A stretch of 52,915 bases of DNA from positions 1 through 52,915 of the IMG/VR virus record IMGVR_UViG_2909288124_000003. One strand, given 5' to 3'. The notes under the pieces are model-generated. The model did not search any database. It worked only from the letters and a program-made list of their open reading frames with translations, and was not told the origin of the DNA. The DNA comes from a virus (Duplodnaviria > Heunggongvirae > Uroviricota > Caudoviricetes). Numbering within the stretch: the first letter of the stretch is position 1; each line of letters starts with the position of its first letter. Both the position numbers and the translations under genes were made by a program. Positions 25,773 through 40,596 of the stretch are shown piece after piece.

Positions 25773-26210
25773 GTTGCCAGTTTTCAATGAAGATAATGCG
25801 GGCAAAAAAAGCCTGCTCGGACGAACAGGCATGAAAAATAACAATACCGTCAAGGAGGTGGCGCCGGGTGCCTCCCGGTGGAACAGCCCCAGCCGACTAG
25901 TTCCGCGCAAACAAACCTGGACAAAAAAGTTTGACTGGACGCCCCGCCGCATAGGGGGATTCACCACGAACCAAAAGATAAAATCATCCGGTGACCGGGG
26001 CAATATCTAACCGGAACTTTTCAGAATCACTTATTGTTTCCTGGAGAGTACATGAGCGTTGGTGAATTCACGTGATGCTTTTGGATGAGCGCTGAACCCA
26101 AAGGTCAGTATTTTCACACAGCAATTTTGCAAAAAGCAGCGCCCATTCAAAACCAGGTCGCTTTCCAGTCACTCCGGGGACCCCATCATCGCAGACCGAA
26201 AAGCTTAAAC

Positions 26211-26285
<75 letters not shown>

Positions 26286-26288
26286 ATA

Positions 26289-26364
<76 letters not shown>

Positions 26365-26442: not shown

Positions 26443-26519
26443 TGGTGGCCCTTGCTGGACTTGAACCAGCGACCGGGCGATTATGAGTCGCACGCTCTAA
26501 CCAACTGAGCTAAAGGGCC
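26443..26519 (-). tRNA. tRNA with CAU anticodon, tRNA-Ile2 (lysidine) type
   Basis: Anticodon loop CUCAUAA; sequence resembles E. coli ileX-type tRNA rather than initiator or elongator Met. Confidence 0.65.
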
Positions 26520-36812: not shown

Positions 36813-37376
36813 TCATGCGTTAGTTTCTCCACTGATACGACACGCCAAGGCGCCCGGAGCTGCACACTCGCGGGCGTCACCTTTTCTGCCTGTTGAAACG
36901 AATACGTCAATCGCCTGATCTGAAACACCAACCCCATAAAGCGCCATAAATCCCAGGAACCCGTGAATCTGGTGGCGGAGCTTCTTACTGAATAATTCTG
37001 AAAGCGTTTTGCGCTCTGATGAATCAATTACCCCATCAGCCGCTGCTGCCATCTTGGCATTAGCCAGCTCACCAGATGCTGCTGCCGCTTTCATCTCAAT
37101 GCTGTACAGCTCAACGTTATCCAGGCTCTCAGCAGTTGGAACATCCACCAGCCATTTCCCTTTGCGGTTCGCCTGGTACTCGGCCAAGTAACAAGAACCA
37201 GACAGGTCCTCCATCCGTTCCAGTTCTGCCAAGGTAAAGAACCGACTGCCACACTTCTGGTACAGGTGGTTGTGGAACTGGTCGATAGTCATCCCTAAAT
37301 CGGAAGCCATACCTAAGCGACCATGCTTGTGTGCCTTACACATCAGACGGATTGCTGTATTTATGCTGTCTACCAT
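36813..37376 (-). CDS. YdaT-like protein (cII-position regulator)
   Basis: Start trimmed to MVDSINTAIRLM with RBS AGAGGGA; sits downstream of the Cro-like gene as in Rac-type prophages. Confidence 0.5.
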   Translation of the reverse strand: MVDSINTAIRLMCKAHKHGRLGMASDLGMTIDQFHNHLYQKCGSRFFTLAELERMEDLSGSCYLAEYQANRKGKWLVDVPTAESLDNVELYSIEMKAAAASGELANAKMAAAADGVIDSSERKTLSELFSKKLRHQIHGFLGFMALYGVGVSDQAIDVFVSTGRKGDARECAAPGALACRISGETNA

Positions 37377-37407
37377 GTTGATTTCCCTCTGGTAGTTAAT
37401 AATCAAC

Positions 37408-37665
37408 TTAAAGTTGACTATTGTTGTTAGCGGAAGGTATGCCGTCATTTTTGTTCGGATAAATATCAGGTCGTAATTGATGGGGAGTTACTACCCATCC
37501 GCCCCATTGGCAGAGTTGAATAACTCTTTCAGAAGGTACTCGGTTCTTTGCAATCCAGTTCGCAACAGATTGAACTGATTGGAATTCAAACCGCCTTGAT
37601 ACCTCTGAAATCGACCCGATCGCCTTCACAGCTTTAGCTGTTACATTCTTGTGTTGAGATGACAT
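37408..37665 (-). CDS. Cro-like HTH regulator (YdaS family)
   Basis: 85 aa, start trimmed to MSSQHKNVTAKAV with RBS AGGAGA; divergent from the repressor gene. Confidence 0.65.
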   Translation of the reverse strand: MSSQHKNVTAKAVKAIGSISEVSRRFEFQSVQSVANWIAKNRVPSERVIQLCQWGGWVVTPHQLRPDIYPNKNDGIPSANNNSQL

Positions 37666-37770
37666 GTGTTCTCCTATGACTAAGCCTGCATCAATACTAC
37701 TCATAGTAGCAATTATTAGCAACTTAAAATAGAAATGACAACTATGCCTTGTGCGCTTAATCTTCTACTT
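37666..37770. promoter_or_regulatory. Immunity region (OR-like) between the Cro-like and cI-like genes, with palindrome CTACTCATAGTAG at 37697..37709
   Basis: Divergent intergenic region; the CTACT...AGTAG half-sites recur in the promoter at 38560..38589. Confidence 0.5.
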
Positions 37771-38454
37771 ATGGTGGAAAATGCTAAATACAAAGACTTT
37801 GCCGAAAGGCTAAACAGGTCTCTCCAAGAGCAATCTATTGGAGTTAAAGAATTGTCAGAGTTCAGTGGTGTCTCGTATGAGATGGCGCGGCGCTACACTC
37901 TTGGTACTGCAAAGCCGAGAGATGAGAAGATGATTCGAATTGCAGAAAGACTTGCCGTCTCACCGGCTTATCTTGATTATGGTGTGCCTGTTAATGGTGG
38001 CGACGCGCCAGCCAAAGGCACGGTCAGAATAGAGCAATTGGATGTTCATGCTTCAGCCGGTTCCGGATATATAAACCAACCATTCCCTACAATAGTGAGC
38101 TCAATAGAGATTCCAGAAGAGAGGATCTTCGAGTTGTTTGGTCGTAGAAGCCTTGATGGCATCGTCATGATAAATGTTGATGGCGATAGCATGATGCCCA
38201 CGCTTTGCCCAAAGGACCTGCTTTTCATAGACAGCAAGGTTGAACAATTCAGCGGCGACGGCGTTTATGTGTTCAATTTTGAAGACAGTACGTTCGTTAA
38301 ACGTTTGCAGAAGGTAAAAGGGCGCCGACTGGCAGTTCTTTCAGACAATGAACATTACCCGCCCTTCTTCATAGAGGAGCATGAAATGAATGAACTATAC
38401 ATATTCGGCAAGCTAATCAGATGCTTACCTCTAAAAATGATAGAGTTTGGCTAA
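37735..38454 (+). CDS. cI-like repressor (HTH plus S24 LexA-type autopeptidase domain)
   Basis: N-terminal HTH and C-terminal S24 domain with the GDSM serine and VKRL lysine motifs. The start may be at 37771 instead. Confidence 0.8.
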   Translation: MTTMPCALNLLLMVENAKYKDFAERLNRSLQEQSIGVKELSEFSGVSYEMARRYTLGTAKPRDEKMIRIAERLAVSPAYLDYGVPVNGGDAPAKGTVRIEQLDVHASAGSGYINQPFPTIVSSIEIPEERIFELFGRRSLDGIVMINVDGDSMMPTLCPKDLLFIDSKVEQFSGDGVYVFNFEDSTFVKRLQKVKGRRLAVLSDNEHYPPFFIEEHEMNELYIFGKLIRCLPLKMIEFG

Positions 38455-38473
38455 TAATTAATTCATCAAGAAA

Positions 38474-38494
38474 CCGGCGAAAGCCGGTTTTTTT
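38474..38494 (+). terminator. Rho-independent terminator after the repressor gene
   Basis: CCGGC-GAAA-GCCGG hairpin followed by TTTTTTT. Confidence 0.6.
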
Positions 38495-38559
38495 ACGCCT
38501 CAAATTCCTCACCTCATAACACTACACTACTAAAAATTTCATTTTTCTACTTTTTGTTG

Positions 38560-38589
38560 TTGCAATTATCTACTTAAAGTAGCTATAGT
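38560..38589 (+). promoter_or_regulatory. PL-like sigma70 promoter (TTGCAA, 18-bp spacer, TATAGT) with embedded operator palindrome CTACTTAAAGTAG
   Basis: Hexamers and palindrome read directly from the sequence. The palindrome at 38570..38582 shares half-sites with the one at 37697..37709. Confidence 0.5.
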
Positions 38590-38698
38590 CATTGCATCGA
38601 AAGCGAACAGGCAGGACGCCCACGAAGTAGCCGCCGGTGGCATATGAATAACCGGATGATTCGCTGACAGAAAACTTAGGTTGGGGGTAGAGGTTTAC

Positions 38699-39064
38699 AT
38701 GAATCATTTATTCACATGCTCATTTTGCGGAGCAACCGAACTGGGAGCGATAAAGATCGTCGCAAAAGGTGGTAAGGACGAACCTGCCATCTGTTCGGAA
38801 TGCGTAGTCACATGTGTAGAAAAAATGATCCTGACTAAAAAATCAGAGGCTGAAAAACCAACCTCTGATAACGAAATAATATCAGTCGATAAAAAACTAT
38901 TTAAAGAGCTTCTTCAGCTTGTCCTCAACCATCCTGATTTCGGAAGTAAGCTGGCTGCTGTTGACATTGATAGTAGCTCCACATCGACAAGTGAAACTTT
39001 TGTTCGACTTGAGCCAAGCGATTTTCTTCTTCGTCTTAGTGCCGCACTTAGGGCATGCGGGTAA
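38699..39064 (+). CDS. ClpX zinc-binding-domain-like protein (zinc ribbon) in the lambda N position
   Basis: LFTCSFCG...AICSECVVTC resembles the ClpX N-terminal zinc ribbon (CSFCG...ICDECV..C). ATG at 38699 with RBS GGGGTAGAGG. Confidence 0.5.
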   Translation: MNHLFTCSFCGATELGAIKIVAKGGKDEPAICSECVVTCVEKMILTKKSEAEKPTSDNEIISVDKKLFKELLQLVLNHPDFGSKLAAVDIDSSSTSTSETFVRLEPSDFLLRLSAALRACG

Positions 39065-39446
39065 CGTAATTTCCTGGTTATCAAAAGCGCCCATAAACAT
39101 CCCTCTTGGTTGTGTGAGAACACCAAGATACCACCACGCCTGATGTGGTTAAAAGCAGGCCAAAGCAATAACAAGTACTTCCCTGTTCTGGCGGCCCGGT
39201 GTTTTCCCGTGTATTTCCGGTAACCGCCAGCCTTTTTCAGGGCACAACGATGAGAACATTGACGAGCAAGGCATAAGTGCTGGTTCGATTCCAGACAGTC
39301 CCATTTAGTTGGGAGGGTTGGGCAGGGAAAAGGTTCGTTCGATTCGAACACCGGCAATGTTCTCTTCGTTGTGGTGAATTGCAGTCCATCGAGACAACCA
39401 GAAGACAAGCGCCTGGCGCCACAACTTGAATGCTGCGTGAAGTGTT

Positions 39447-39492
39447 GGCGGTACCAGTTACATCCCATCAATTAGCTGGTACCGCCCTTTTT
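39447..39492 (+). terminator. Strong rho-independent terminator inside the structured non-coding region
   Basis: GGCGGTACCAG...CTGGTACCGCC (11-bp stem) followed by CTTTTT. Confidence 0.55.
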
Positions 39493-39678
39493 ACACAACA
39501 GAAAAGGGCATCACCGGGCGACGGGCTCATAACCCAATCCACCCGGGCAAAAAGAAAGCGGTCTCTCAAGCCGCCGACCAATGCAGGTGCCCTTCTCTGT
39601 TGTGTATGGAGAAAGTTCGGCGGTGGCAGCCGCCTTAACTTCGTGTATGGACTAAAACCTTGTGCAGAGGAAAGTTAA

Positions 39679-40596
39679 ATGAAATTACCTAAGTTCCGTA
39701 ACGCAATCGTGTACCGCGCCACACTACCTAGCATTGAAGCTATCGAGGGGCATCTGCTTGAACTCCCCTACTCCGAGATTGGTGAAACTGAGTTTTCACG
39801 CGCCTCTTTTGTGCCAAACCCGATCACTGGCGAATTGGTCACCCCAATATCAGGTGGGTATGCCATCGTGATCCGCCATGATCAGAAAATCATTCCCCAG
39901 CATGTTGTTTTGAAGGAAGCCGCAGCACGGATCCAAAGAATCGAAGATATGTCCGGGAGTAAAATCAAACGTATCGAACGATTAGCAATTATCGACAGCG
40001 TCCGCGTTGACCTGTGTAAACGGGCATTTGTTAAATCAACGCTGATCCTTGCGTTGTACAGCACCAACGAAAAGCTATTAGTGGTCAATACGACCAATAA
40101 AAATATTGCCGGTATGGCTGTGGCTATGCTGGTGAAAGTTGTCGGTTCCGTTAAAACAGAAACAATCAACATTAGCGATATTAAGAACGGTTTAACTACG
40201 CGGTTGAAAAACTATATCAATGGCGTGGCCAATGCTTTTGAAGGGTTTACCGTCGGCAATTATATCCAGCTGTCCCGCCTTGCCGATCAAAATGAAGTTA
40301 TTCGCTACTCAGCTGAACACGACTCAATTCAAAGCGAGCTAGTTGATAGCCTTAATAGCGGCTTTACCGCTGATAAAATGGAGCTAGCAGGATGCGGTGT
40401 ATCGTTCATCCTCACCGAAAATTTCCATTTTTCGCGCATCAATACCCAAGCCCAAACATTCAACGATGAAGATGATAAAGCATTTCAATGGCGCCATCAG
40501 GCCGGGACGGATCTACTCCAATTCAGCAAAGTAGTAAACCTGATGTGTGATCTTCTTTCGTACAAAGAAGAACAGCCACAAAAACCCGCAGCCTAA
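39679..40596 (+). CDS. RdgC-like recombination-associated protein
   Basis: N-terminal F(K/R)N..VYR motif and overall pattern resemble E. coli RdgC; sits in the recombination module. Confidence 0.55.
   Translation: MKLPKFRNAIVYRATLPSIEAIEGHLLELPYSEIGETEFSRASFVPNPITGELVTPISGGYAIVIRHDQKIIPQHVVLKEAAARIQRIEDMSGSKIKRIERLAIIDSVRVDLCKRAFVKSTLILALYSTNEKLLVVNTTNKNIAGMAVAMLVKVVGSVKTETINISDIKNGLTTRLKNYINGVANAFEGFTVGNYIQLSRLADQNEVIRYSAEHDSIQSELVDSLNSGFTADKMELAGCGVSFILTENFHFSRINTQAQTFNDEDDKAFQWRHQAGTDLLQFSKVVNLMCDLLSYKEEQPQKPAA

Follow-up and report, generated by a model that had tools for sequence, protein, structure and literature searches.

The question raised by the stretch of Caudoviricetes DNA considered here (IMG/VR record IMGVR_UViG_2909288124_000003, positions 1 to 52,915; all 52,915 nucleotides (nt) are referred to below as the window) is whether, and by which protein, the palindromes of the CTACT...AGTAG type on both sides of its cI-type repressor gene are read. 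A preliminary description had taken them for the binding motif of the phage repressor, defining right and left operators (OR and OL). We consider it highly probable, judging from the sequence comparisons set out below, that we are dealing with the immunity switch of a lambdoid prophage and that the dyads are operators of the cI-type repressor at PR (the cro promoter), PRM (the cI maintenance promoter) and PL (the early-left promoter). The recognition sequence would in this case represent an apparently new immunity specificity of a known, lambda-style switch. The two flanking genes are what they had been assumed to be. The repressor gene cI (37771-38454, plus strand) encodes a 227-residue protein with the Pfam domains HTH_3 and Peptidase_S24 and the helix-turn-helix (HTH) GVSYEMARRYTLG, while the divergent cro-like gene is an open reading frame (ORF) on the minus strand (37408-37665) for an 85-residue protein of the YdaS HTH family (PF15943, E 4.8e-9). 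The intergenic region between them comprises 105 bp (37666-37770).

The two palindromes first reported are present at 37697-37709 and 38570-38582, and the motif is indeed palindromic; its symmetric unit, however, is 6+1+6 (CTACTT-A-AAGTAG) rather than 5+3+5, the consensus site CTACTTAAAGTAG being a 13-bp dyad of this type. The sequence CTACTNNNAGTAG has two exact matches in the 52.9 kb, one on either side of cI, and none in 100 dinucleotide-preserving shuffles. The set of sites turned out to be larger than the two palindromes and one half-site proposed earlier, and includes at least five members. OR1 (CTACTCATAGTAG, 37697-37709), an exact match, is located in the spacer of PR and extends into the -10 hexamer by 3 nt; OR2 (CAACTTAAAATAG, 37720-37732), with two mismatches, shares 3 nt with the PR -35 and stops 2 nt short of the PRM -35; the OR3 candidate (CTACTTATGGTGG, 37765-37777), also with two mismatches, covers the PRM start and the cI ATG. 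Downstream of cI, OL1 (38570-38582), an exact match and a perfect 13-bp palindrome, lies in the PL spacer, and OL2 (CTACTTTTTGTTG, 38547-38559), with two mismatches, abuts the PL -35. The CTACT noticed earlier near 38546 does exist (38547-38551), not as a lone half-site but as the left half of the complete OL2. The centre-to-centre spacing is 23 bp both for OR1-OR2 (37703/37726) and for OL2-OL1 (38553/38576). This distance, about two helical turns, would permit cooperative binding in pairs, and it is the same in all relatives.

When up to two mismatches are allowed, the whole window contains 15 sites versus 11.9 expected, that is, there is no overall enrichment; six of the 15 fall in 37404-38582, which makes up 2% of the window, and a Poisson estimate puts such clustering at about 1e-6. 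We also built a weight matrix from relatives with cI at most 93% identical and from no others; its top six hits in the whole window were the five sites described above and one more, all of them in 37404-38582. OL1 scores 24.2 bits (the best in the window), OR1 18.9 bits, and the weaker sites 13-16 bits. Since the best hits in shuffled sequence average 12.7 bits and reach 19.8 bits, a maximum exceeded by OL1 only, the weaker sites are not significant alone, and their support comes from position, spacing and conservation. The sixth hit (13.0 bits), a possible outlying site, is the perfect palindrome CAACTTAAAGTTG at 37404-37416, at the junction of the cro stop and cII, 293 bp from OR1. It is a weak candidate, as it overlaps the cro codons Q-L-stop and its arms C(A/T)AC..GTTG do not persist in relatives whose cI is less than 86% identical. 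Phage HK022 has an operator, OFR, between cro and cII, which this weak candidate brings to mind. A third OL site at 38527-38539 (CTACTAAAAATTT) was rejected, as it scores 4.9 bits and is seen in close relatives only.

The comparative evidence comes from about 75 related loci, namely 64 IMG/VR viral-contig loci found by a scan with the repressor protein (cI 64-100% identical), two isolated Providencia phages and ten genomes of Mixta, Pantoea, Providencia, Proteus, Rouxiella, and Morganella. The family thus extends from Escherichia to Providencia, Proteus and Pantoea, with cI 60-100% identical; the flanks diverge and the sites keep their offsets. A motif search across related prophages, suggested in the preliminary description as a check, revealed the sites at constant offsets in nearly all of these loci. 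Relative to the cI ATG, OR1 is found at -74 (67 of 67 loci), OR2 at -51 (66 of 67), and OR3 at -6 in most loci; the OL sites lie about 90 and 113 nt after the cI stop, 23 bp apart, in nearly all of them. Among distinct sequences the CTAC/GTAG arms carry 1.8-2.0 bits per position, compared with no more than 0.5 bits in the left flank of OR1, and the 10-bp spacer between OR1 and OR2 is variable. The OR2 stretch AAAATAGAAATGAC is invariant in a 49-sequence alignment, and distant relatives carry CTACT.AAAATAG. OL2 reads CTACTTTTTGTAG or CTACTTTTAGTAG in relatives, and OR3 is nearer the consensus in the distant ones (CTACTCATGGTAG, CTACTTATGGTAG). As the degenerate sites of the window have such better-formed counterparts (OL2 CTACTTTTAGTAG, OR3 CTACTCATGGTAG), they are to be regarded as true members of the set. 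In some relatives, an extra site lies within the PRM spacer in place of OR3. The block OL2 / TTG(A/C).. / OL1 / -10 is conserved in 60 distinct relatives, and directly after it the sequence becomes mosaic.

The interval 37400-38720 shares 99.8% identity with a prophage of E. coli Nissle 1917 (NZ_CP172017, 2.18 Mb) and with the unannotated phage record Phi06_2987 S (KM389288), and at least 80% of it is present in 32 of 5,426 complete E. coli genomes. Both close copies have the same sites, with one difference: position 37702, in OR1, is C in the window and T in Nissle (L068) and Phi06_2987 (L001), as in 33 of 36 distinct relatives (CTACTCATAGTAG vs CTACTTATAGTAG). The C is a change private to this window, in its strongest OR site.

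The promoters overlapped by these sites were assigned by consensus and conservation. PR (37694-37722, minus strand) has the -35 TTGCTA (37722-37717), a 17-bp spacer and the -10 TAGTAT (37699-37694); transcription is expected to start near 37687. Every relative checked has a promoter here that ranks first or second among the minus-strand candidates, its -10 ending 77 or 80 nt before the cI ATG. Another promoter-like site, TTGTCA-18-AATAAT (37712-37741, minus strand), is not conserved and might be a tandem PR. It was rejected as the main PR, as it scores only 5-7 in many relatives; TTGCTA-17-TAGTAT was chosen because it, or a 3-nt-shifted equivalent, is present in every relative checked, whereas the TTGTCA site decays. 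PRM (37735-37763, plus strand) consists of the -35 ATGACA (37735-40), a 17-bp spacer and the -10 TAATCT (37758-63), and in nearly every relative ATGAC(A/T/G)-17-TA..CT takes first or second place among the plus-strand candidates (in one exception it is ranked lower). PL (38560-38589, plus strand), found by a consensus scan and supported by conservation, has the -35 TTGCAA, an 18-bp spacer and the -10 TATAGT, and would start near 38596. Its layout, OL2, TTGCAA, 4 nt, OL1, 1 nt, TATAGT, is held throughout the family. Taken together, the fixed offsets, the overlap with sigma-70 promoters on both sides of cI and the correspondence with the cI DNA-binding domain, discussed below, support the operator-like reading given to the sites at the outset.

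As to the start of cI, RefSeq places it at 37735, giving a protein of 239 amino acids, and the Providencia phage records likewise begin at the upstream ATG. The 12 in-frame codons of 37735-37770 contain no stop in any of 20 distinct variants, and their amino acids are not conserved; the support from the open frame is weak once the relatedness of the variants is considered. We did not adopt ATG 37735 because its bases behave as the PRM -35 and because the TA..CT -10 is conserved across codon boundaries. Positions T1, A2, and T6 of this -10 are fixed while the overlapping codons change amino acid, which is the signature of a promoter and not of coding. The PRM -10 ends 8 nt before the ATG at 37771, no Shine-Dalgarno sequence was found upstream of 37771 in the window, and a predicted PRM start at 37770/37771 would make the cI mRNA apparently leaderless. 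The longer cI could possibly be made from read-through (establishment) transcripts.

Which protein, then, reads the sites? Across the family the N-terminal domain of cI falls to 49% identity, and its HTH core YEMARRYT is invariant; every locus that carries the CTAC..GTAG motif has a conserved HTH as well. The flanking residues of GVSYEMARRYTLGTAKPR, which by the Pfam HTH_3 register spans the end of helix 2, the turn and the recognition helix, show rare substitutions only. A domain-swap control was provided by a genome scan with the C-terminal domain of cI alone. In four Providencia/Proteus loci (L204-L207) this domain is 56-58% identical and the HTH is a different one, FSTQGAVSQYLNG. No CTAC..GTAG sites were found in these four loci. 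They carry another dyad, TAGCA-N3-TGCTA (e.g. TTAGCAATGCTAA), in three copies before the cI homologue (about 140 nt) and two after it (60-110 nt), with the same O2/-35/O1/-10 layout; the palindromes of ST64B and SfV, phages with unrelated repressors, are different again. The dyad therefore follows the DNA-binding domain of the repressor and not its C-terminal domain, as an operator, unlike a promoter spacer, would be expected to do.

It remains to consider whether the dyads are bound by one regulator only (Cro or cI alone) or by a third protein, such as the product of the CII-like gene (36813-37376, minus strand; an ORF with the Pfam domain Phage_CP76), so that the logic of two repressors would fail. 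We regard this as unlikely. Sequence alone cannot name the binder: the putative recognition helix of Cro, SVQSVANWI, recurs unchanged in almost all of 44 distinct homologues (single-residue differences are seen in the Providencia-type and three other variants), cro accompanies cI and the operators in every locus checked, and, the helices of both proteins being conserved, co-conservation cannot separate cI from Cro. On the other hand, in L204-L207 the operator changes along with the N-terminal domain of cI, in a comparison confined to cI, and the OL sites, which lie past the cI terminator at a promoter pointing away from cro, are a classical target of a maintenance repressor. As for a CII-type activator, such proteins are known to use direct repeats in establishment promoters rather than the spacers and hexamers of early promoters. 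The motif tracks the cI HTH; by analogy with lambda, both proteins are taken to use the sites, Cro being no less likely a user than cI.

According to another explanation, the repeats are conserved merely because PR and PL are related promoters, with a shared spacer, an UP-type sequence or a common origin by duplication, and do not serve as operators. All the strong sites are indeed found within or next to promoter hexamers, A/T-rich spacers are a recurrent feature of promoters, and the window-wide count at up to two mismatches is not above chance. However, conservation of a perfect dyad is unusual for promoter spacers, and it is the dyad arms that show the strongest conservation, the -35 and -10 hexamers themselves being variable among relatives. 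Moreover, the dyad recurs at OR3, outside any spacer, and it is replaced as a whole by another dyad when the repressor HTH is replaced. This makes the explanation very improbable. Chance palindromes, which short 5-bp arms and A/T-rich surroundings might favor, are refuted by the two exact matches found against none expected and by the fixed positions in about 75 diverged loci, and their probability is negligible.

If the dyads are operators of a cI-type repressor, the switch may be pictured by analogy with lambda, 434, and P22, from which binding, cooperativity, activation of PRM, the role of OR3, the use of the sites by Cro and the transcription starts are all inferred. Dimers of cI would recognize the 13-bp palindromes by the HTH GVSYEMARRYTLG, the outer CTAC/GTAG being nearly invariant and the centre A/T-rich. 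Each early promoter would have two sites 23 bp apart in the order O2, -35, O1, -10. Occupancy of OR1 and OR2 should switch off PR and with it cro, cII and replication, and occupancy of OL1 and OL2 should switch off PL and the early-left operon. Because OR2 ends 2 nt before the PRM -35, repressor bound there could stimulate PRM and thus its own leaderless transcript, while OR3, lying over the PRM start, could shut PRM at a high repressor level. The small Cro-like protein probably uses the same sites in lytic growth. Induction by the SOS response would proceed through RecA-stimulated self-cleavage at ASAG; this cleavage-site-like motif, as well as the GDSM and KRL motifs, is invariant across 45 distinct cI homologues.

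Several observations weigh against this picture or parts of it. OR2, OL2, and OR3 each score within the range of shuffled sequence. OR3 is degenerate (CCACT..GGTGG) in the group with about 80% identity, and since it overlaps both the start codon and the promoter, its conservation is confounded by coding and promoter constraints. There are two PR candidates in the window, and TTGTCA-18-AATAAT is the best minus-strand match to the consensus. The reading frame upstream of the ATG at 37771 is open in all relatives, which is compatible with the longer cI from 37735. The centre of OR2 lies about 45 bp before the predicted PRM start, compared with about 42 bp in lambda, which makes the activation of PRM uncertain. 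Finally, this cI, unlike that of lambda, has no detectable sequence match to solved structures, and no mention of the operator sequences was found in the searchable literature.

Compared with well-studied systems, the proposed immunity switch resembles that of lambda in the divergent arrangement of cro and a cI with an HTH and an S24-type C-terminal domain, and in operators that overlap PR, PRM, and PL. Likewise, OR2 reaches over the beginning of the PR -35, OR1 is placed in the spacer and the -10, the cI mRNA from PRM is apparently leaderless, and a terminator after cI is followed by OL and PL. The dimensions are also similar: adjacent sites are 23 bp apart here and 23-24 bp apart in lambda, and the predicted PR and PRM starts are separated by about 83 bp here and by 82 bp in lambda. 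The lambda operator is 17 bp long and TATCACCGCCGGTGATA-like, and OR3 of lambda is located within the PRM spacer; here the site is the 13-bp CTACTTAAAGTAG, and OR3 lies 45 bp from OR2, on the PRM start and the ATG. This rewired OR3 on a leaderless cI start may be a departure from lambda. Further differences are that there are just two clear OL sites and neither rexAB nor an N gene. The operators of phage 434 are 14 bp long (ACAA-N6-TTGT). These are the operators that the sites described here resemble most: both are short dyads with four nearly invariant outer bp and a variable A/T-rich centre, and the repressor is of the HTH_3 type; the present sites differ in the half-site sequence and in being one base pair shorter.

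The closest isolated phages are the Providencia phages PSTRCR_117lys (MW358929) and PSTCR8lys (MW057859), with cI 60-63% identical. They have CTAC..GTAG sites at -74, -51, and -6 and the OL pair, as in the window, and differ in the host genus and in the genes after PL; their records annotate the repressor gene and no operator features. Apart from these two, no characterized phage with this repressor was found, the next relatives being about 38% identical. The repressor gene 'pr' described for a Nissle phage (PMC5987069) was considered as a counterpart of this cI and rejected, since its primers are absent from the window.

The PL transcript has a further feature. Its 5' end contains a structured leader RNA of 72 nt (38599-38670, plus strand; covariance model, 92.8 bits), which begins about 3-7 nt past the predicted PL start and is followed, as the first ORF, by a gene for a ClpX-type zinc-finger protein. 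Megablast matches to many heteroimmune phages are confined to 38589-38669, and the element occurs directly after PL in ST64B and SfV too. A pattern scan yielded 118 distinct versions. RNAalifold, applied to 24 versions, predicts an outer helix (38602-07/38660-65), a 3-bp hairpin and a 5-bp hairpin (38634-38/38651-55). The outer helix and the 5-bp hairpin are supported by compensatory changes, 10 of 14 pairs retaining pairing with both sides changed; 95.8% of the cells are paired, compared with 72% after shuffling and 24-43% after displacing the partners by 1-3 columns.

This leader is common to many temperate enterobacterial phages with unrelated repressors and without an N gene, including ST64B, SfV, SfII, SfIV, mEp460, Yersinia YeP1-3, and Pectobacterium ZF40. 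The 1.3-kb query was matched in 1,381 of 5,426 complete E. coli genomes, and among the matches sampled almost all comprise the leader only; the cryptic prophage CPS-53 of K-12 lacks the element. The covariance model finds a single copy in each phage, and this copy belongs to the PL transcript without exception, including cases in which a gene has been inserted between it and PL. Of 64 distinct contexts, 50 have their closest upstream ORF on the same strand (at least 80 amino acids) ending 100-300 nt short of the leader, and the six such ORFs that were tested are HTH and/or S24 repressor-type proteins. The leader is a movable module outside the immunity-specific one and would stand under OL1/OL2 control. 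Its position in turn identifies 38560-38589 as the early-left promoter and marks the end of the immunity-specific module at the start site of that promoter.

The antiterminator RNAs encoded by the put sites of HK022 (PMC9378689) are a term of comparison. An RNA of this type acts in cis through the zinc-binding domain of the RNA polymerase beta-prime subunit, with the effect that terminators are suppressed. The leader and put are both structured, about 70 nt long and found no more than about 10 nt from the PL start of a phage that lacks an N gene. Unlike HK022 put, the leader is closed by a helix, and the PR operon contains no further copy of it (putR). Its identity with the put RNA of HK022 or HK639 was rejected: the signature sought was CGAACGGCGCG ... 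AAACCATGCGTCGG ... GGCGGG.TCAGGA, and there is no significant alignment to the PL-putL region of HK022 or to the annotated putL of HK639. For N-less phages of the ST64B type, a survey of lambdoid phages only conjectures a put-like mechanism (PMC12315714). A cis-acting antiterminator is our leading guess for the leader. That it represents a second class of cis-acting RNA, unrelated to put, which makes RNA polymerase terminator-resistant in the early-left operon, is a tentative proposal which we would rate as possible rather than probable. Rfam assigned nothing to the operators or the leader, either at gathering thresholds over the whole window or at E up to 10 over 38440-39700. In the latter interval no family exceeded its gathering threshold, the best hit having 22.7 bits versus a threshold of 54, and none overlapped the leader core.

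As for the surroundings, cI is followed by an intrinsic terminator (38463-38484, plus strand), ACCGGC-GAAA-GCCGGT and then T7, which was read from the sequence by eye. Two runs of a terminator scan did not report it, though the hairpin is plain by eye, and its stem is preserved in relatives by compensatory changes (e.g. GCCGAC/GTCGGT, GTCAGC/GCTGGC). The early-left genes beyond PL are the ClpX-type zinc-finger ORF and rdgC, and in the Nissle copy exonuclease, xis, and int are found farther on. A 67-residue ORF on the minus strand (38897-39100) is antisense to the 3' end of the zinc-finger gene and has weak zinc-ribbon/Lar-like Pfam matches (E about 0.006); at 38869-38842 this strand also carries a strong hairpin with a T-run. 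The Nissle copy lacks a stretch of 245 nt (39249-39493), in which the window has a T-arm-like sequence, GGTTCGATTCC. Starting inside this stretch, 39449-39495 (plus strand) forms a long hairpin with a T-run that resembles the 3' half of DicF (Rfam 17.7 bits versus a threshold of 48) and would act as a terminator inside the early-left operon. The only Rfam matches in the window at gathering thresholds are three tRNA genes (26214-26285, 26292-26364, and 26446-26519, minus strand) and a full-length match to the small RNA family STnc100 (25800-25992, minus strand, 71.7 bits), all of them about 11 kb left of the immunity region.

In general, the analysis provides a likely operator code (CTACTTAAAGTAG), a promoter map and a probable cI start for an immunity group that is shared by no characterized phage in the collections searched. 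The group occurs in prophages from Escherichia to Proteus, including one of the probiotic strain E. coli Nissle 1917. For the carrier strains, direct tests of superinfection immunity, of induction and of prophage stability are now possible. The repressor and its sites are a candidate orthogonal pair for genetic circuits, and L204-L207, set against this group, form with it a natural pair in which a change of the HTH re-specifies a 13-bp dyad on a constant promoter scaffold. The operators confirm the lambda paradigm rather than extend it; the leader RNA is the part that could lead somewhere new.

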